The translations under genes were made by a program, and so were the position numbers. Below are positions 53,999 through 64,000 of a stretch of DNA of 64,000 bases, piece after piece. The DNA lies in NCBI GenBank assembly GCA_963750165.1, contig CAVVPN010000003.1, positions 480,001 through 544,000 on the forward strand, written 5' to 3'. Source of the stretch: an uncultured Gemmataceae bacterium. GTDB lineage: Bacteria > Planctomycetota > Planctomycetia > Gemmatales > Gemmataceae. The notes beneath the pieces were generated by a model. That model had not been told where the DNA came from. It made no database searches and saw nothing but the letters and a program-made list of their open reading frames with translations. Within the stretch, counting starts at the first letter, position 1. Each line of letters starts with the position of its first letter.

Positions 53999-54071
53999 GG
54001 GCGCTTAACTCAGCGGCTAGAGTGCTATCCTCACACGGTAGAAGTCACTGGTTCGAATCCAGTAGCGCCCA
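53999..54071 (+). tRNA. tRNA-Val(CAC)
   Basis: GGGCGCT/AGCGCCC acceptor stem, anticodon loop CTCACAC, GGTTCGAATCC T-arm; CCA not encoded. Confidence 0.93.
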
Positions 54072-54180
54072 CTCAGCTTAAGTCCTTTGCCGAACGCATT
54101 TTAAGCGTACCCATTCGCGGTGAATGGTGCAGCCTGGAAGTGAAAACTTCTCCGTAGTCTACGGAAAACGGGCTTGCATC

Positions 54181-55083
54181 ATGTCCAAACGTACCCCTTC
54201 CCTTTGCCGCCACAAGGCGACCGGCCAGGCCGTCGTGCGGATCGACGGCCGCGATTTCTACTGCGGCGCCTACGGCACCCCCGAAGCCCAGGCCGAGTAC
54301 GACCGCTTGATCGCCGAGTGGCTGAGCAGCGGCCGCTGCCTGCCGGAGGCCGCCGACACGCTGACCGTCAACAAACTGATCCTGGCGCACTGGCGCTGGG
54401 CGGAAGCGTACTATCGTTGGGGCAAGCGCGGCGGTCAATGTCTGCGATATGCCCTGGCAGTCCTCCGCGACCTGTACGGCCACACCCCGGCCAAGGAGTT
54501 CGGGCCGCGTGCCCTGAAAGCGTGCAGGCAACGCATGATCGAAAAGCGCTGGTCCCGCACCTACACGAACACGCAGACGAACCGCATCCGCGGCTGCTTC
54601 AAGTGGGCCGCCGAAGAAGAATTGTTGCCCGGCAGCATCCACCAAAATCTGAACGCCGTGGCCGGTCTTCAGGCTGGGCACACCGAGGCCAGAGAAACCG
54701 AGCGGGTCAAGCCCGTGCCGCAGGAGACGGTGGACGCCACGTTACCGCACCTGCCGAAGCCCGTCCAGGCGATGGTGCGGCTTCAACTCCTGACCGGCTG
54801 CCGGCCCGGGGAGGTGTGCGCCATCCGGCCGGTGGACCTGGACATGAAGAACCCGGCGTGCTGGGTGTACCGCCCCGGCAGCGACCAGGGACCACACGGC
54901 CAGCACAAGACCGCTCATCACGGACACGACCGGCTCATCCTGATCGGCCCGAAGGCCCAGGAGGTGTTGCTCCCGTACCTGGGGACGAAGCTGGACGCCT
55001 ACTGCTTCAGCCCGGCGGAGTCGGAGGCGCAACGCAACGCGGCCAGGAAGGAACGGCGACAGACACCCATGACGCCCAGCGAC
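54181..55083 (+). pseudogene. Tyrosine integrase, 3'-truncated
   Basis: RHKATGQAVVRIDGRDFYCG N-terminus, LTGCRPGEV, HKT; HxxR/H/Y motifs absent and the frame runs on into unrelated sequence up to 55587. Confidence 0.85.
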
Positions 55084-55706
55084 ACGTCGAAGATCATCGG
55101 TTTTCTCCTGTTCGTTCTTGGTAACACGCTTTGCCGTCAGAACCTCCGGAAGGCTACCAATCGTGACGGCAGCGGTGGTGACGGTGGCAGCCCACGCCAT
55201 CGGCGAGTTGGGCGTCCGCGGGTTGTCATTGAGCACGTGGACCCGGCGCTTGAGGTCGCCCCGGCAGGGCGATCCGGTGGTCGCTACTGTGCTGCAACGT
55301 CAGGCCCATGCGCCGACTCCCAGGAAAACCCCCGCGCCCATCCGGGGGCGCCGCGGGAATGGTATCAACGGCCGCTGGCGTTTCAAAAGGGGCGGGGGCA
55401 ACCCCGCCCCGGGATCGCGGCTGACCCAACTGCGGTTTGGAGCGTGATGGCCCCCAATGTCGGGGCTGGGCACCCCGCCCCGGAGTTAGCCCCGCCGCAT
55501 GCTCTGACAGTCACCACCGCAGTGACCCACACTACCCGCGCAGCCAGGGGCGGACGTAGCGGCCTGCGGCTACCCGTTCTGGGCTAGAGTGAGGCCGGGT
55601 CAGCCCCATCCGGGCTGCGGGTCATCGCTTCCGGTTAAGGAAAACCATCACCGTTTGGAAGATGATACTGAGCATCGGCAACGTGAGGCGAGGTCGCTGC
55701 TCGCGG

Positions 55707-56504: not shown

Positions 56505-56695
56505 CCCTGGCGGTGTGTGTCTCGACTCGGGCGGAAGAATGGTGGCGCAGACTCCCAGGAGTCTTCCCCGTATGTGACTCTGAGCCGGGGAGGTTTTCGG
56601 CCTCATCACTGGTGACCCCGACCCGGGGGCTCCGCCCCCGAGCGCGTGGTTCCCGTTTGCAACAGTGACTCGTGTTTGACCACTGCCGCCTCCCC
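56505..56695 (+). ncRNA. Candidate IS110 bridge RNA (element 2; ends approximate)
   Basis: Multi-hairpin left non-coding end after TATGTT; contains TTGCAAC identical to the right-end donor sequence. Confidence 0.5.
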
Positions 56696-56756
56696 CGCAC
56701 ACCGCCTCTGGGCACGCCCATTCCTTTCCCGCTCCTGTCCTTTGCGGAGTCCTCCC

Positions 56757-58271
56757 ATGACGGCACCCACGGCCAGACACCCACCCGCCTCCCCGCCTCC
56801 CGGCGCCCAGCCCGCGCAGGCGCCGGCCCACCGCCAGGCCTACCGCCGGCGCAAGACCCGGGCCCAGGACCGGCGCGACGCCCGTCAGCGGCGGGAGGCC
56901 GCCCGGGTCGAGGCCCTCCCCCTGCAACGTCCGCACGCCGCCGGCATCGACGTCGGCTCCCGCTCCCACTGGGTCTGCGTCGGCTTCACCACCGACGCCC
57001 ACTCCGGCTTGATTCAAGAGTTCCCGGGCCACACGGCCGGCCTGCAAGCCGTTGCCGCCTTCCTGCGGGAGCATCAGGTCACCTCGATCGCCCTGGAATC
57101 GACCGGCATCTACTGGATCCCCCTGTACGAACTGCTCCAGGCCGAGGGGTTTGAGGTCCTGCTGGTCGATCCCAGCTACAGCCGCCAATTGCGCGGGCGC
57201 CCCAAGACGGACCGCCGCGACTGCCAGTGGATCTACCGGCTGCACAGCGTCGGCCTGCTGGCGGCGGCCTTCCGGCCCGATGAGCGGACCTGCCAGTTAC
57301 GGGCCTACCTGCGGCAGCGGGCCAACGTGATCCGCCAGGCCAGCCAGCACGTGCAGCACCTGCAAAAGGCGCTGGAGCAGATGAACCTGAAGCTGACGGA
57401 GGTCCTCAGCGACATCACGGGCCTCACCGGGCGGGCCATCCTCCGGGCGATCCTGCGCGGGACGCGGGCGCCGGAGAAGTTGGCCAGGTACCGCGACAAG
57501 CAATGCAAGGCCAGTGAGGTGGAGATCGCCCAGGCCTTGACCGGGTCGTACCGGGAAGAGCACCTGTTCGAGCTGAGGCTGGCCTACGAGGCCTGGCAGT
57601 TCTCCCTGGGGCAAGTGGCGAAGGTGGACGCGCAGGTCGCCCTGCAGTTGGGGCGGATGAAGTGCGACCGCGCCTTGCCGCCGCTGAAGCCGAAGGCGCG
57701 GCCGAAGCGCCGCGCCGACTCGCCCCGCTTCGACGTGCGGACGGCGTTGTACTACGTGGTCGGGTTGGATTTGACGGAGATCGAAGGGGTCAGCGACTTG
57801 ACGGCGCTGACCGTGGTCAGCGAGATCGGCCCGGGGGTGTCGCAGTTCGCGACGGTGAAGCAGTTCTGTAGCTGGCTGGGGCTGTGCCCCAACTGGAAGA
57901 AGACGGGCGGCCGGGTCAAGTCCAGCCGGACGCGCCGGGGGGTGAACCGCGCGGCGCAGGCGCTGCGGCTGGCGGCCCAGAGCCTGCACCACAGCCAGGG
58001 GGCCCGGGGCGGGTTCCTACGGCGCATGAAAGGGCGGCTGGGGGCGCAGGCGGCCGTGACGGCGACGGCGCACAAGCTGGCGCGCATCGTCTACCTGGCG
58101 CTGAAGCACGGCCTGCCGTACGTGCGTCAAAGTCAGGAGGAGTACGAGGCCCAGATGAAAGAGAAGCAGATCAAGGCGCTGTGGCGGAAAGCACGCCAGC
58201 TGGGACTGGACATCGTTGAGCAGGCGGCGGCCGGCGCTCCGGCAGCGGCCGCGGCGTCGGCGCAGGGGTAA
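56757..58271 (+). CDS. IS110 family recombinase/transposase
   Basis: GIDVG, LESTG, KTDRRD (DEDD); CPNWKKTGG; ATAHKLAR. Confidence 0.95.
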   Translation: MTAPTARHPPASPPPGAQPAQAPAHRQAYRRRKTRAQDRRDARQRREAARVEALPLQRPHAAGIDVGSRSHWVCVGFTTDAHSGLIQEFPGHTAGLQAVAAFLREHQVTSIALESTGIYWIPLYELLQAEGFEVLLVDPSYSRQLRGRPKTDRRDCQWIYRLHSVGLLAAAFRPDERTCQLRAYLRQRANVIRQASQHVQHLQKALEQMNLKLTEVLSDITGLTGRAILRAILRGTRAPEKLARYRDKQCKASEVEIAQALTGSYREEHLFELRLAYEAWQFSLGQVAKVDAQVALQLGRMKCDRALPPLKPKARPKRRADSPRFDVRTALYYVVGLDLTEIEGVSDLTALTVVSEIGPGVSQFATVKQFCSWLGLCPNWKKTGGRVKSSRTRRGVNRAAQALRLAAQSLHHSQGARGGFLRRMKGRLGAQAAVTATAHKLARIVYLALKHGLPYVRQSQEEYEAQMKEKQIKALWRKARQLGLDIVEQAAAGAPAAAAASAQG

Positions 58272-58594
58272 AGAAGCGGAAGCGGGTAGCAGAAGTGGTG
58301 GGCCGTGGGGCGGAGGAGGAGGACGAGGAAGGAGAGCCAATCAGACAAGTCCGTGGCCCTGGCGGGGCACCCTGCGCCGAGGAGAACCAGGGAGAAAGAT
58401 CGCCTCGCTGCTCTGGGCAAGCCATCGGTGGGAGGTTCCTTGCAACCTCAGCACCCAACAGCATGACACAAGTACGCTTCGGGGGTCGGGACCGCCGCGC
58501 GCACGGCCATCCGGGCACACCGGTTTTCGAGCCTTTCCCACGCCGACACGGTAAAACACGACATTTCCGCGGTCTCGACCCCTCCCACCGGGGC

Positions 58595-58737
58595 GCGCAC
58601 TTGCTGCGCGTACAGCGGCAGGGCCCGGGTGCCCGCCGCCAAGGCCGCGCGGGCGACGGTGACAGGGGATTTCGTGGTGAACATGCCCCGTTAGAGAAGC
58701 CTCGGAATCTCATGGATTCCGAGGTTTTCTACGGAGT
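58595..58737 (-). pseudogene. Stub of a DDE (IS5-like) transposase with its left end
   Basis: MFTTKSPVTVARAALAAGTRALPLYA resembles the N-terminus of a planctomycete DDE transposase; preceded by hairpin AGAAAACCTCGGAATC..GATTCCGAGGCTTCT. Confidence 0.45.
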
Positions 58738-58758
58738 TGGCGCGGCCCCTTCACAGGG

Positions 58759-59139
58759 CTATTTCTTCTTGGCTTCGCGGAATAGCGGAGCCTGAGCCAG
58801 GGTGAAGAGAACGACTTCCTCGCCGGTAACGGTGCTGATGTCGTGATGCAGGCTCAGCACCTTGACGCCAGTGGCCGCCTGGAGCATGGCCTCCAGGAAG
58901 GGGCGGGCGGTTTCAACCAGCTGAGTCCGGACTTGTTTGAGCAGGTCTCTGCCCTTCTCTGGCGGGAGCGTTTTGACCAGTTGTTGTTCGGCCGCGGTCA
59001 ACACCCCCATGAGACGGACCACGAGCAGGTCAGCGATCAGGTGGGTGTGGATGTCCTTGGGACCACGGCCCATGTACTCCAGTTCAAAGCGGCGCATGCC
59101 CTCGGAGACGGCGGCTTCGATCTCCCCTTGCGTTTTCAT
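58759..59139 (-). CDS. DUF2294 / MpsC family protein
   Basis: MKTQGEIEAA..YMGRGP..LLVVRLMGVLTAAE..VLSLHHDISTVTGEEVVLFTL. Confidence 0.9.
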   Translation of the reverse strand: MKTQGEIEAAVSEGMRRFELEYMGRGPKDIHTHLIADLLVVRLMGVLTAAEQQLVKTLPPEKGRDLLKQVRTQLVETARPFLEAMLQAATGVKVLSLHHDISTVTGEEVVLFTLAQAPLFREAKKK

Positions 59140-59262
59140 GGCAGCCTCAACGAGCCTCCGGTGCCAGTCTCAGGTCTGCACGGGAGAAACGCCCGCACCG
59201 GCGGAACGCGGTCCTCGACTCCAACCAACCTGCATATTATCCGACGCGGGGCCATAATCCAC

Positions 59263-59290
59263 TTGTATTTTGGCTCCTGCCCCGTAGAAT
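59263..59290 (+). promoter_or_regulatory. Sigma70-like promoter
   Basis: TTGTAT-16 nt-TAGAAT in an AT-richer intergenic stretch. Confidence 0.6.
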
Positions 59291-59296
59291 AGCTTT

Positions 59297-59460
59297 GAGA
59301 GGGCTGACATCGCTGATTCTCGGTCGGCCCCGAAATCCCTTGATTTGCTGTCGTCGGATGACTTGATAAGGGGCAACCCGGCTGAACCGGGGGGTCCGTT
59401 GACGAGTATGCCGGCGTGGTCGGAATACCCAACGGTGTTCGGCCACGCCGGCTTTTTTTT
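59297..59460 (+). ncRNA. Candidate structured leader RNA (riboswitch/attenuator) or sRNA
   Basis: Lies between promoter and intrinsic terminator; stems GGGCTGAC/GTCGGCCC, TCGTCG/TGACGA, GGG-GCAA-CCC, CCGG-CTGAA-CCGG. Confidence 0.5.
59410..59460 (+). terminator. Intrinsic terminator upstream of a start codon
   Basis: GCCGGCGTGGTCGGA..TCGGCCACGCCGGC followed by T8; 47 nt before ATG 59508. Confidence 0.8.
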
Positions 59461-59507
59461 CGCAAACGGTGGTGCGGAGCGGCCGTGATCACCAAAGGCT
59501 AAACAGG

Positions 59508-59978
59508 ATGAACCAGTCCAACGCAACCATGGCGCAGCAGATCGCCCAGGCGGCCAGCGCGTTCGAGCGGCGGCGGACCGGACACGGGCCCAGGTCCGTT
59601 ACCGTGGTCCTGAGCGCGGACACGCTGGTGATCACGCTGCACGGCGCCCTGTCGCCGGCGGAAACGGTCCTGGCGAGCAGCCCGGCGGGCGCCGCCCAGG
59701 TCCAGGAGTTTCACCGGCAGTTATTCACGAACTCGTCCGAGGAGTTGCGCCAGGAGATCAAACGGATCACCGGGGTGGAGGTACGCGAGGCCGCCTCGGA
59801 GGTCGAGACGACCACCGGCACCGTCGTCCAGGTGTTCACGACCGGGACCATGGTGCAAGTGTTCCTACTGGCCCACGGGGTGGCGCCGGGCACCTGGAGC
59901 GGGGCCGACCCCGGCGTTTTGGAAAAAGCACCACAGCTCGATGGCGAACTTAAGGGGCAGCGGCCAGGCAGCCTGTGA
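59508..59978 (+). CDS. DUF2294 / MpsC family protein
   Basis: AQQIAQAASAFERRRTGHGPRSVTVVLSADTLVITLHGALSPAE..ITGVEVRE. Confidence 0.85.
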   Translation: MNQSNATMAQQIAQAASAFERRRTGHGPRSVTVVLSADTLVITLHGALSPAETVLASSPAGAAQVQEFHRQLFTNSSEELRQEIKRITGVEVREAASEVETTTGTVVQVFTTGTMVQVFLLAHGVAPGTWSGADPGVLEKAPQLDGELKGQRPGSL

Positions 59979-60044
59979 CGCGGGAGCGTGTCCCGCGTGG
60001 GGCGAACTCGGCCGAGTCCTTTCCAGGTGTGAGGAGTGATGAAC

Positions 60045-60332
60045 ATGACCGTGGGTACCCTTCTGAGTTGGATGTTGTGCGGGCTGATCGTGGGGCTGAT
60101 TGCACGCCTCCTGGTCCCTGGGCGTCAGAACATGAGCCTGCTCCTGACGATGGTCCTGGGGATCGTCGGGGCGGTCGTGGGCGGCTTCCTTTACTCGTTG
60201 ATTCAGGGGGTGCCGGCAGAGCCGTTCTCGCTTGCCGGCAACGCCTGGCACGGCTGGATCGTGGCTATCCTCGGGGCCGTGCTCGTGCTCTGGGCTTACG
60301 GGGCCTACTACCCAAGGCGGTGGTGGCAGTGA
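60045..60332 (+). CDS. GlsB/YeaQ/YmgE family stress membrane protein
   Basis: [33 protein letters not shown]. Confidence 0.9.
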
Positions 60333-60456
60333 CCTCCGCGTGTGGCGGGCGCCCCGTCCAGGGGGTATCGACGGGGCAACCACGCCTCCCGCCCGCTCCG
60401 GCGCCACCCCGGATTCTCGTGGATTGGACGAAGTCGAAAGGATAATTCCGCAAGCC

Positions 60457-60693
60457 ATGACCACCGAAGCACAAAACGTCAAGTTCCGCCGGCAGATGGC
60501 CAGGCTGACGGCCAGCCGGTTGACTCCCGACAAGGTCAAGATGCCCCCCCGTGAACAAATCCGGATCAAACGGCGCTGCAACCTGTGCGGCCGGGCGCGG
60601 GCGGTGTACCGCAAGTTCGGCATCTGCCGCATCTGCTTCCGCAACCTGGCCAGCGACGGCCTGATCCCCGGCGTCCGTAAAGCGAGTTGGTAA
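60457..60693 (+). CDS. rpsN: Ribosomal protein S14 paralog (Zn-binding type Z, extended)
   Basis: [37 protein letters not shown]; 78 aa; not in an spc operon. Confidence 0.9.
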
Positions 60694-60721
60694 GCAGATC
60701 ATTCTTCATTGAGGAGGTTCC

Positions 60722-61009
60722 ATGGCCGCCACCACAGCACAACAACAAGAACTGCGCGAGAAGGTTTCGGCCCTGATTCAATTCCGGTTTGAAGGCGATT
60801 ATCGCAAGGCGTTCGACCACTACGACAGTCGCCAAAAAGACGGCAAGATTGACAAAGTCGAGTTGAAACGACTCCTCGCCGACGCCGGCGTTGGCAGCTG
60901 GCTCACGCGGGATGCGTGGGCGGACGGAATCATCACTGCCCTGGACACCGACCAGGACGGTACGATTTCTTCGGTTGAATTTGAGAAGACGTTGCAGGAG
61001 TCGTCCTGA
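60722..61009 (+). CDS. EF-hand calcium-binding protein
   Basis: FDHYDSRQKDGKIDKVEL and LDTDQDGTISSVEF. Confidence 0.88.
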   Translation: MAATTAQQQELREKVSALIQFRFEGDYRKAFDHYDSRQKDGKIDKVELKRLLADAGVGSWLTRDAWADGIITALDTDQDGTISSVEFEKTLQESS

Positions 61010-61039
61010 TATTCTTCCCCGAACTCAAGAGAAACTAGC

Positions 61040-61897
61040 ATGTCCGTTGCAACCGCGCCGCCGCCGACCGCAGTCCGAACCGCGCCGAGTGAAATCCGCG
61101 TCGTCAGCCACTCCAACCTGTTCTACTGGTGGCCGGTCTGGGCCGTCGGCTTCGTGCTGAGCTTCCTGACCATGATCGACGGGCACTTCCTGGTCATCGT
61201 CCCCGGGGGCGCCATGGCGTTGAAAGACGCCGCCGTGACCGCCGAGATGGACGGCAAGACGACCACGTTCAAGAAGAATGATGTCCTCGTCCTGCCCAAG
61301 GGTCACCTGCCCGGGGCAGACGGCGTCCTCGACCAACCGCACCTGCACGCCGCCAACAACCGAGGGTATGGCGTGCTGTTCGCCACCGTGCTGCTGCTGG
61401 TCATCTTCATCACCAACGTCCCGCTGCGCGGCCTGTGGTCGGTCATGGTCATTGGCCTGATCATCCTGCTGTCGATCATCTTCCAGCTGGCCGGCTTCTG
61501 GGAGCACATCCTGCGTGAGGCATCCCTGCTGGATGTCCGCATCAACGCCGCCGGCTACTTCCTGATCTCCAGCGTGCTGTTCGGCATGTGGCTGTTCACC
61601 ATGCTGCTGTTCGACCGTCAGATCCACATGACCTTCACGTCGGGCCAGCTGAAGGTCCGGACGGAGATCGGCGGCGGCGAGAAGGTCTACGACGCGGTCG
61701 GCATGACGCTGGAGAAGCAACGCAGCGACCTGTTCCGGCACTGGCTGATCGGCCTGGGCTCAGGCGACCTGATCGTGCGGACCTCGGGCGCCCAGGCTCA
61801 CCAGTTCGAGATGCCGAACGTGCTGTTCATCGGCCGCAAGGTGCGGGCGATCGAGGACCTGCTCCGGGAGAAATCGATCGTCGCGGCGCCCCATTAA
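61040..61897 (+). CDS. Hypothetical membrane protein
   Basis: About four TM segments; SHSNLFYWWPVW; C-terminal GLGSGDLIVRTSG..PNV (bPH-like). Confidence 0.75.
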   Translation: MSVATAPPPTAVRTAPSEIRVVSHSNLFYWWPVWAVGFVLSFLTMIDGHFLVIVPGGAMALKDAAVTAEMDGKTTTFKKNDVLVLPKGHLPGADGVLDQPHLHAANNRGYGVLFATVLLLVIFITNVPLRGLWSVMVIGLIILLSIIFQLAGFWEHILREASLLDVRINAAGYFLISSVLFGMWLFTMLLFDRQIHMTFTSGQLKVRTEIGGGEKVYDAVGMTLEKQRSDLFRHWLIGLGSGDLIVRTSGAQAHQFEMPNVLFIGRKVRAIEDLLREKSIVAAPH

Positions 61898-62010
61898 CAG
61901 AGCGAAGGGAACCGGCGAAATACGGTCGGGGAAAGGGCCATTCAGCTACAACGTGCTTCAGGCATCAGGGTGATCGAGTGCCAGCCCCGCATGTGAGGGG
62001 GGAGGGAACC

Positions 62011-62454
62011 ATGCTGAGGAAAAGTCGTCCGGGCATTCTGGTAGTGGACGACCTGGTGGACGCGGCCGACAGCTATGCGATTCTGCTCGAACTGTGGGGG
62101 TATGACACCAGGGTATGCTACGACGGGGCCACGGCCCTGGAGACCGCCCGCGCTTTCCGGCCCCAGGCCGTGCTGCTGGACGTCGCCATGCCCGGCATGG
62201 ACGGCCTCCAGGTGGCCCGGCGCCTCCGAGGGTGGCCCGAGTTTGCCACCACCGCGATCATCGGCATCAGCGGCTACTGCGGGGCGACCTACCGCAGCCA
62301 GGCCCTCCAGGCGGGGTTTGACCGCTACCTGGCCAAACCCGTGGACCCCGATGGCCTTCGGGACCTGTTAGGCCACTTCGCCCCGCAACAGGTGCTGTTC
62401 GACATGTTGGAACCCGAACAACAACCAGTGGCGATTTCCCAAGTGCGGTCGTGA
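62011..62454 (+). CDS. Single-domain response regulator receiver
   Basis: LVVDD, LLDVAMPGMDG, ISG, YLAKP. Confidence 0.9.
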   Translation: MLRKSRPGILVVDDLVDAADSYAILLELWGYDTRVCYDGATALETARAFRPQAVLLDVAMPGMDGLQVARRLRGWPEFATTAIIGISGYCGATYRSQALQAGFDRYLAKPVDPDGLRDLLGHFAPQQVLFDMLEPEQQPVAISQVRS

Positions 62455-62469
62455 AAACGGAGGTTCCCC

Positions 62470-62694
62470 ATGTTAGTCTTGACGCGGAAAAGTCAGGAAG
62501 CGGTTGTGGTTGGCGGTGCCAACGGCTTCGAGCACCTGCTCAAGGTCACCGTGCTCGACATTAAAGGCGGCAAGGTGAGACTGGGCTTCGAGATCGATGC
62601 CGCCATCCCGATCCATCGCTGGGAGGTGTGGGAACGCATCCGCGGCGGCCACCGGCCGGATGGCCCAGAAGGAGAAGCCCCCATAGGCGAATGA
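62470..62694 (+). CDS. csrA: Carbon storage regulator CsrA/RsmA homolog
   Basis: MLVLTRK..VTVLDIKGGKVRLGF..IHRWEV. Confidence 0.9.
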   Translation: MLVLTRKSQEAVVVGGANGFEHLLKVTVLDIKGGKVRLGFEIDAAIPIHRWEVWERIRGGHRPDGPEGEAPIGE

Positions 62695-62742
62695 GTGAAA
62701 ACACCTGGAGTTCGGTCTGAACTTGTACCAGAAAGTCTCATC

Positions 62743-63090
62743 ATGTCCGTCAATTGCGATGTGATCCTGCGCTGGAGTGCGACGCCGGGACAGCTCAGGG
62801 CCGTCGGCTCTGCCCTGTGGCTCTGGTGCAACCGTACCGCGGGGAACGCGGGCATCTACCAGTACCTCGACAGCCAGGCACTGGCCGACCTCATCGCCGG
62901 CCGGCTGCCGGGTGCAAACGAAACGCCACGACAGGACGATGGGCGCGGCGCCCATTTCCGGGTGCGGGACGAAGCGTCCCAGAATCGCCAGGAGTCCATC
63001 GACCGTCTGCGCCGGGAGCTGCCGGCCGAGGGGGTCGAGGACGTCGTGGTCGATGGCGTCAGTTGGAACCTGTCTACGAATAGAAATTGA
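62743..63090 (+). CDS. Hypothetical protein
   Basis: 115-aa co-oriented ORF within the cluster. Confidence 0.65.
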   Translation: MSVNCDVILRWSATPGQLRAVGSALWLWCNRTAGNAGIYQYLDSQALADLIAGRLPGANETPRQDDGRGAHFRVRDEASQNRQESIDRLRRELPAEGVEDVVVDGVSWNLSTNRN

Positions 63091-63151
63091 CGCCGGCCGC
63101 GACGTTCGCGGCCGCGTCCGCCCAATCTCAGACTCTCGAAAGGGGTCAGCC

Positions 63152-63319
63152 ATGGGCTTGCTGTTGTTGATCATTCTGGTCGTGTTACTCCTGGGCGGTT
63201 TGCCGTCCTGGAACTACAGCCGCAACTGGGGCTACGGCCCGAGCGGCGCCGTGGGGTTGCTGGTGGTGGTCGTGCTGGTGCTCGTCGTCATCGGGACCGT
63301 TCACCCGTTTAACTTCTGA
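63152..63319 (+). CDS. DUF3309 family small membrane protein
   Basis: LLLGGLPSWNYSRNWGYGPSG. Confidence 0.9.
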   Translation: MGLLLLIILVVLLLGGLPSWNYSRNWGYGPSGAVGLLVVVVLVLVVIGTVHPFNF

Positions 63320-63386
63320 GCGGCGGAGTTGGCCCGGTGAGGAGACCGCCCTCGTTTCGGAGACCTCATCGCCCGAGGAATACATC

Positions 63387-63638
63387 ATGACTATTTGGGA
63401 TTGGATCGCCGGCAACTGGAAGGAACTCATTGGCAAAGCGCAGGAGAAGTGGGGCAAACTGACCCACGACGAACTGATGGTGACGGCCGGGAAGCGTGAG
63501 CAACTCGCCGGCCTCCTGCAGAAACATTACGGCTACCAACGGACCCACGCGGAACAGCAACTCGACGAGTTCGCGGCAACGCTGCGAGCCCACGCGGAGA
63601 AGGAAGTCGAACAATTCGCGCAGACGCTGACGCCGTGA
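63387..63638 (+). CDS. CsbD/YjbJ family stress protein
   Basis: WDWIAGNWKELIGKAQEKWGKLTHDEL..GKREQLAGLLQKHYG. Confidence 0.92.
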   Translation: MTIWDWIAGNWKELIGKAQEKWGKLTHDELMVTAGKREQLAGLLQKHYGYQRTHAEQQLDEFAATLRAHAEKEVEQFAQTLTP

Positions 63639-63839
63639 GTTTGCTGAAGCGCTGGCGCAGCCGCATTGGAACAGAGCCGATGATGCCAGGCCCGGGCCTG
63701 GGGCCTCAAGAATGCGCTCGGAACCATTCCTGAGGCCCACTTTCCGCCCTCATTTCCGACCGTCTCGCCCGACACTTTGGGAACCGCTCGATCGCAAAAT
63801 GAACGTGAGCGGTCCCGGCTTAGCGAAAGGTGATTCCGC

Positions 63840-64000
63840 ATGAAGAGGTTAATCGTTGGTTCGTCGGTGTTGGCGCTGGCGCTGGTTGCCTTCACCGGCT
63901 GTGGTGATCGGGGCACTTCGGGCGGACCGGGGGCCACCGACTCAGGCACCAAGCAACCCCTGATCGGTCAGGTGGACGATACGTTCAATCTGAGCGTGCC
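63840..64000 (+). CDS. Lipoprotein, partial (runs off the window)
   Basis: MKRLIVGSSVLALALVAFTGC lipobox; AAGGTG RBS. Confidence 0.7.
   Translation, partial: MKRLIVGSSVLALALVAFTGCGDRGTSGGPGATDSGTKQPLIGQVDDTFNLSV

Follow-up and report, generated by a model that had tools for sequence, protein, structure and literature searches.

Organization of the locus

The window analyzed here is a stretch of 64,000 nt from an uncultured Gemmataceae bacterium of the phylum Planctomycetota (assembly GCA_963750165.1, contig CAVVPN010000003.1, positions 480,001 to 544,000). In its last part, two genes of the MpsC/YbcI family (DUF2294, PF10057) flank a structured leader RNA. The features of the locus are as follows (window positions):

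58759-59139, minus strand: class I MpsC/DUF2294 gene, divergent (PF10057, E = 1.5e-35); candidate RNA-binding antiterminator
59263-59290, plus strand: predicted sigma-70-type promoter TTGTAT-16-TAGAAT (TTGTAT 59263-59268, TAGAAT 59285-59290)
59297-59330, plus strand: 5' hairpin, variable in sequence and not part of the conserved core (MFE fold)
59352-59357, plus strand: 5' antiterminator strand CGUCGG; for its UCGG core, pairing with CCGG 59411-59414 is predicted
59358-59410, plus strand: conserved rod, candidate binding site (covariation)
59410-59460, plus strand: intrinsic terminator, stem 59410-59452 and T8 59453-59460 (covariation)
59508-59978, plus strand: class II MpsC/DUF2294 gene, first behind the terminator (PF10057, E = 1.2e-25)
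60036-63638, plus strand: co-oriented downstream cluster (ORFs and Pfam matches)

Both flanking proteins are members of the MpsC/YbcI family, scoring 122 and 90.1 bits against a Pfam gathering cut-off of 23, and neither has a Pfam match besides PF10057. The downstream cluster codes for a transglycosylase-associated protein, ribosomal protein S14, an EF-hand protein, a membrane protein, a response regulator, CsrA and CsbD. The S14 gene (60457-60693) and the EF-hand protein gene (60722-61009) are thus located within a putative stress operon.

The leader partly has the outline given in a first-pass annotation of this DNA. The TTGTAT-16-TAGAAT promoter sequence is present and is the sole TTG..TANNNT site on either strand of 59140-59520; a consensus promoter scanner, in which this site went unscored, returned no promoters in 58000-64000. 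The 5' hairpin, originally placed at 59301-59330, was recovered around 59297-59330 in the MFE fold. The strong hairpin with T8 is likewise there, ending 47 nt before the MpsC ATG at 59508, with CAGGATG spanning the start codon. The folding energy of the 170-nt leader is -82.4 kcal/mol (z = -4.43), lower than that of any of 200 shuffles. The annotation had overlooked the divergent MpsC gene (58759-59139, minus strand) and the multi-copy nature of the RNA.

A tRNA-Val gene followed by a phage-type integrase gene (phrog_1, E = 2.2e-18) lies at 53999-55100, 5 kb upstream, and an IS110 transposase gene at 56646-58271. Therefore, the stress cluster is probably part of an integrated island.

A multi-copy RNA family of Planctomycetota

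The window element (59352-59460) is one of eight full copies in its own genome, as detected by BLAST and profile searches. By iterated searching from patterns of the 5' core and of the terminator we collected 296 instances after the removal of duplicates (mean identity 70%, effective number 187). In the genome collection, the 5'-core pattern occurs at no fewer than 127 loci, 121 of them titled Planctomycetota. The terminator-only pattern, which leaves the 5' part free, occurs at 137 loci or more (an estimated ~1500 stored stretches), with Planctomycetota accounting for 79 of the 80 matches listed first. When 139 terminator matches were inspected for the 5' part, it scored at least 20 in 121, between 10 and 20 in nine and below 10 in another nine. 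The family is thus nearly all planctomycetal. Its distribution across genomes is patchy: the motif is present in 9 of 41 relatives, plus one further genome with a copy cut by a contig end, and at E <1e-12 in 5 of the 150 genomes of a phylum sample (RNA-model searches scored 24 or 89 candidates per genome).

The assumption that the leader belongs to no known family agrees with a cmscan search against Rfam 15, which returned no matches to E = 10 for 58800-59900. At ten family loci Rfam yielded two chance matches, both well under the gathering threshold and located outside the elements, and at ten further loci none at gathering. In the literature, as represented by titles and the beginnings of abstracts, we found no description of the leader RNA, of MpsC as an antiterminator or of any link between MpsC/YbcI and RNA; supplements and subscription journals may hold an earlier listing. 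Nothing was found joining DUF2294 with a riboswitch, and searches for COG5609/DUF2294/PF10057 gave unrelated fungal work only. The main texts of PMC11109978 and PMC8632094 contain no planctomycete motif and none of the terms 'Planctomyc', 'ybcI', 'ndhF' or 'bicarbonate', although their supplements may bear on the matter.

Several copies deserve separate mention. A second copy in the same genome lies 14 kb on, past the window end (G000:C3:553255-553373, minus strand), facing the cluster and ahead of a CsrA-like gene. Six more copies, together with six more MpsC genes, are found within ~90 kb (G000:C3:1940589-2029757), where one class I gene (2014898-2015277) is split over two frames. Tandem copies with a terminator each occur at L187:1436-1676 and L245:162-412.

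Two mutually exclusive folds

Mutual information computed on a sequence-only alignment placed the top pairs in two registers, the rod (column sums of 80) and the terminator (sums of 173). The rod was then evaluated on 90 sequences, namely the window copy and 89 members of the terminator-only sample, in which the 5' strand was not fixed. With its basal pairs it is 88.2% paired, two-sided changes are seen in 17 of 17 rod pairs, and the covariation score of 0.302 (0.177 in shuffled data) was reached in none of 500 shuffles, which ignore kinship; the effect is large and register-specific. Slid registers gave a pairing of 23-45% and scores of 0.128 or less. For the terminator, 93.6% of the cells are paired, 15 of 20 pairs show two-sided change and, again, none of 500 shuffles reaches the observed value. 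Conservation and covariation of the leader, which had been proposed as a check, are thus supported for the rod and the terminator of a family of 296 instances.

The rod consists of a 3x3 internal loop (AHG/AAG), an ACU/AGU stem, A·G mismatches, the segment GGGC-AA-CCC/GGG-GG-GCYC and a variable apical loop. The non-canonical columns 16:64, 31:49 and 32:48 covary in the rod register. Conserved oppositions (n = 296) are A·G at 14:66 (276 instances), G·A at 16:64 (287) and A·G at 31:49 (276). This fold replaces much of what was first drawn for the leader. The TCGTCG/TGACGA closing helix and the GNRA-capped GGG-GCAA-CCC stem found no support (62.6% and 47.0% paired; covariation not clearly above shuffles, 38 of 500 of which reach it). 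The CCGG-CTGAA-CCGG stem is real, but it is only the tip of the longer rod and not an element of its own. Consequently, from the suggested layout of an attenuating riboswitch we retain an attenuator with an overlapping terminator, whereas the proposed aptamer fold is unsupported.

The rod and the terminator would compete for the same strand: UCGG at the rod base is predicted to pair with CCGR in the 5' arm of the terminator. The antiterminator pairs 11:69, 12:68 and 13:67 are kept in 89-90 of 90 sequences; 22 and 45 of the 90, respectively, have the outer two pairs disrupted. Because the antiterminator pairs are nearly invariant, they show no covariation; their mean pairing probability in 76-nt transcripts is 0.95-0.97 (n = 266). 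When truncated transcripts were folded, sequence upstream of the terminator arm captured it in 265 of 267 members; after shuffling of the upstream part this happened in 38%. In the full-length fold the terminator is favoured, by 7.7 kcal/mol in the window and by a median of 10.0 kcal/mol in 265 members. As for the 5' hairpin, at least 35 nt precede the core in 138 of 171 leaders, and folding energies below -8 kcal/mol were obtained for 95% of these. Overall, covariation supports two mutually exclusive folds, the overlapping pairs themselves being invariant. Two general hallmarks of an attenuator, an intrinsic terminator before a gene and a conserved, exclusive alternative fold, are found here.

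Promoters and genes associated with the RNA

The promoter pattern of the window recurs across the family. Within 130 nt upstream, 171 of 290 members have TTG-N16-18-TANNNT; in a stretch lying more distally it occurs in 5 of 290, and shuffled sequences average 21.7. Its commonest form is TTGCTT/TACAAT, and the spacer is 16 in 126 of the 171. An independent promoter between terminator and ATG was looked for as well: in this leader the pattern has no match there, and across the family the pattern is 3' of the terminator in only 5 of 291 cases.

First genes were compiled for the 184 copies with at least 600 nt downstream. An SD-led ORF lies behind 160 of them, at a median distance of 55 nt, and its start falls within 120 nt in 137 of 184 compared with 25 in the antisense control. 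Class II MpsC is the commonest first gene (47 of 184; 41 by the SD rule). The 118 other distinct first ORFs, 66 with a Pfam match and 52 with none, include DUF3309 (8), transglycosylase-associated (5), CsbD (4), ice-binding-like (4), sigma factor (4), ferritin-like (3), Hsp20 (3), YflT (2), DUF1328 (2), BON (2) and DUF2934 (2) proteins; KaiC, S30AE, baeRF12, CsrA and others occur singly. These are general-stress and dormancy families. Judged by such gene content, the many RNA copies may form a general-stress/dormancy regulon; we found none described for Planctomycetota, and the RNA would mark a candidate. The first-pass annotation had tied DUF2294/MpsC to inorganic-carbon transport, a link that is not supported for this RNA: carbonic anhydrase, SbtA, SulP and MpsA are absent from the 118 non-MpsC first genes, and four queries of its own genome gave no SbtA, beta-CA or SulP match at E = 1e-15.

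MpsC classes I and II

A class I MpsC gene stands head-to-head with the RNA in 49 of 190 instances, and the full window arrangement recurs in 28 of 170 copies; any MpsC gene at all is present in the flanks examined of only 69 of 170 copies. At the level of genomes, all ten motif-positive genomes among the 41 relatives have MpsC matches (two of them partial). Matches below E = 1e-50 occur in 8 of the 10 motif-positive relatives vs 1 of 31 motif-negative ones. In the 150-genome phylum sample, an MpsC match is present in 4 of 5 motif-positive genomes; matches below 1e-45 are found in 3 of 5 motif-positive genomes vs 0 of 145 others, and weaker ones in 7 of the 145. The exceptions are G097 (89% complete), motif-positive with no MpsC match, and G014 (80% complete, 1330 contigs), a class I MpsC genome with no motif match. 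Related genomes are not independent, and the co-occurrence may also reflect co-inheritance on islands.

A quick tree built on 94 rows keeps class I (support 100) and class II (SH-aLRT 98) apart as separate groups. All 26 class I and all 40 class III proteins carry R25, R42, K68, R71, H98 and D100, and R64 and R79 are kept in nearly all of them. Class II has mostly lost these residues (R42 to T, K68 to Q, R71 to H and others). The pI of class I proteins is mostly 6-8, not strongly basic, and their conserved R/K/H/D residues could bind an anion instead of RNA. The predicted class I structure (pLDDT 93) gave no clear match in fold searches: VIA gave Z = 6.7 at best, Foldseek returned none at E = 0.001, and RbfA (Z = 5.3, rmsd 4.0, 88 aligned) is within background. 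HutP, CAT and ANTAR folds are absent from the rows listed for this search, itself one without any clear match. By sequence, the class I protein has no solved relatives; there is also no usable Atlas match outside PF10057. At L312:2452-3648, an MpsC domain is fused with three BON domains.

The published standing of MpsC is that of a neighbour of mpsAB: its deletion gave no phenotype, and it is dispensable for MpsAB transport (PMC6689103). In the same work, mpsA expression drops at 5% CO2 (PMC6689103).

Class III MpsC loci

Inspection of weaker MpsC matches brought to light a further group, class III. We sampled the best 80 of 521 loci, from Planctomycetota, Desulfobacterota, Nitrospirota and others. 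Of these best 80, 62 have a terminator hairpin within 450 nt downstream of the MpsC gene and 9 have one within 500 nt upstream; the terminator arm is captured by a rod in 54 of 61 cases, compared with 44% of shuffles. At class III loci the profile of the window rod gave four matches, each with an E above 2 and each away from the elements, and 20 class III loci had only tRNA matches in Rfam. Because the window-rod profile misses class III RNAs, the RNA type tracks the protein class.

Among 70 ORFs downstream of class III genes in the same best 80 of 521 loci, 40 have a Pfam match: SbtA (7), SAICAR synthetase (6), beta-CA (6), MpsA-like (5), hexapeptide proteins (4), HMGL-like (2), MpsC (2) and, one each, PEPCK, POR, isocitrate dehydrogenase and five others. 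We infer that the four hexapeptide proteins are gamma-CA. The inorganic-carbon link therefore belongs to class III MpsC with a different RNA, not to the window RNA. The rods, at times two in series, precede SbtA, carbonic anhydrase, SulP, MpsA, PurC or carboxylase genes. Lineage-specific rod-plus-terminator RNAs behind class III genes are seen at L308:4240-4336, L310:4150-4231, L313:2250-2346 (minus strand) and downstream of the match in L314-L393; the class III loci probably hold several further uncatalogued RNA motifs. At L345:1885-2253 and L384:3243-3593 a second, degenerate MpsC with most of the conserved basic residues gone sits behind the class III attenuator, in parallel to class II.

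In Bacillus subtilis, ybcI presumably lies in the ndhF operon. A 158-nt RNA of that species, ncr181, maps between adaB and ndhF on the same strand (PMC2965217). A 2026 B. subtilis preprint describes the regulation of carbonic-anhydrase and bicarbonate-importer genes as still to be explored, and its available part does not mention ybcI or a leader (10.64898/2026.09.08.750065); the corresponding part of PMC7857571 has nothing on regulation. The class III relatives are a candidate route for the regulation of bicarbonate-uptake genes.

A proposed model of MpsC-dependent antitermination

The leader family is real and uncatalogued; it covaries and has a promoter and an overlapping terminator. It adds to the known repertoire a well-supported RNA regulatory class that is absent from Rfam and widespread in Planctomycetota. 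That it acts as a transcription attenuator is very probable. With moderate confidence, we further propose from sequence and predicted folding that this attenuator is OFF by default and is switched ON by class I MpsC, a predicted RNA-binding antiterminator that would clamp the rod. According to folding predictions, the rod and the antiterminator pairs would form first, in a 72-nt transcript, and the full-length RNA without a factor would fall into the terminator. A factor sitting on the CGG-AHG-ACU/AGU-AAG-CCG loop would block strand invasion, so that RNA polymerase reads on. The bound factor would likely be class I MpsC. Its degenerate class II counterpart, made only on read-through, would likely tune it as a feedback partner. 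The input signal might be CO2 or bicarbonate, as suggested by the class III relatives only. A regulator gene upstream of, or opposite, the attenuator and an RNA that tracks the protein class are what is expected for a protein-RNA pair. If the model is true, it provides the first function for the MpsC/YbcI (DUF2294) family.

It might be argued that the RNA is instead an ON riboswitch class, whose rod binds a small molecule or ion (a second messenger, an alarmone or a cation) and for which class II MpsC is merely a regulated gene. The near-invariance of unpaired and non-canonical nucleotides throughout the phylum would fit such a reading, as would the tandem copies and the many copies per genome ahead of unrelated stress genes. 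There is also a precedent in the Na+-I riboswitch (DUF1646 motif), an ON switch, as the window RNA would be, with overlapping aptamer and terminator and several copies per genome (PMC9337991). However, that riboswitch has stems P1 and P2 and a conserved P2 loop, in contrast to the one rod with a variable apical loop, the lack of an Rfam match and the different genes seen here. The window RNA has a single rod, and no sign of a junction or pseudoknot appears among the top 50 covarying pairs. Moreover, a riboswitch would leave unexplained both the divergent class I gene, which would be unregulated, and the position of class III MpsC upstream of rods that differ in sequence. We therefore regard a riboswitch as the less likely, though quite conceivable, reading.

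A general RNA-binding protein such as CsrA, acting through the GGA at columns 12-14, is a still poorer candidate for running the attenuator, and we consider it quite improbable. The GGA is 97-100% conserved, 28 of 184 copies are followed by a CsrA gene in the next 2 kb, and there are four CsrA-like genes in the genome itself. Nevertheless, the GUC-GGAH-GAC hairpin shows no covariation, G9-C18 is broken in 47 of 89 sequences, and pairing with the terminator arm accounts for the GG. The CAGGATG at the start codon, initially read as a CsrA site, is present, but GGATG occurs in only 4 of 49 MpsC starts examined, and the suggested CsrA input is not supported. In sponges of the CsrB/RsmY type, GGA motifs are shown in conserved hairpin loops; with one GGA, an unsupported hairpin and such rare start-site motifs, the window RNA resembles neither a sponge of this type nor a CsrA target.

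Considered on its outline, a ~165-nt multi-copy RNA delimited by its own promoter and a strong terminator, the family might consist of trans-acting small RNAs serving as a protein sponge, with the downstream genes incidental. The co-oriented ORF at a median of 55 nt, the rarity of the promoter pattern behind the terminator and the conserved overlap of rod and terminator make this very improbable. Type III toxin-antitoxin pairs have the layout promoter-RNA-terminator-gene, and their RNA array serves a single toxin gene. An antitoxin RNA belonging to a similar pair, or the end of a mobile element, would suit this layout, the patchy spread and the island setting, but is barely credible given that class II MpsC is not first in 137 of 184 copies, that the other first genes are diverse, that only three tandem pairs occur among 296 instances, that the eight copies of the window's genome have varied flanks with no target duplication by eye, and that no transposase family is found among the first genes or recurrent neighbour representatives scanned.

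Returning to antitermination by MpsC, a broader scheme is possible though doubtful. DUF2294/MpsC proteins might be CO2/bicarbonate-sensing RNA-binding antiterminators, class III serving carbon uptake and carboxylation in several phyla, and class I, equipped in Planctomycetota with a separate RNA and a degenerate feedback partner, having been rewired to a mobile general-stress/dormancy regulon.

Comparison with known systems

Attenuation as such is a known mechanism, to which a new RNA and a new candidate protein family are added here. Antiterminators already described are the subject of PMC12591593, the available part of which mentions neither MpsC nor the DUF. BglG, SacY and LicT act through their CAT domain on RAT. 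For BglG, RAT is a stem-loop that the bound protein stabilises and that, like the window rod, partly overlaps an intrinsic terminator (PMC12591593). RAT is ~30 nt long, whereas the window rod is ~65 nt, has A·G-rich loops and has no Rfam match. CAT/PRD families are absent from the 16 window proteins, 44 neighbour representatives and 118 first genes scanned.

Two other RNAs invite comparison. WRC-39-1, known as the yjbJ motif, is a terminator-bearing candidate before a CsbD-like stress gene, like the window RNA (PMC11109978); its 40 representatives are all from Streptococcus, and it is set apart here by its description, not by sequence. ANTAR targets have dual hexaloop hairpins (10.1101/2020.09.27.315978), compared with one rod with a variable apical loop in our case.

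The hut genes are arranged in the order regulator-terminator-operon. Class III MpsC loci match this order, whereas the window has its candidate regulator in divergent orientation. HutP of B. subtilis is a small protein that works by ligand-activated antitermination (PMC12591593), which resembles the role proposed for class I MpsC.
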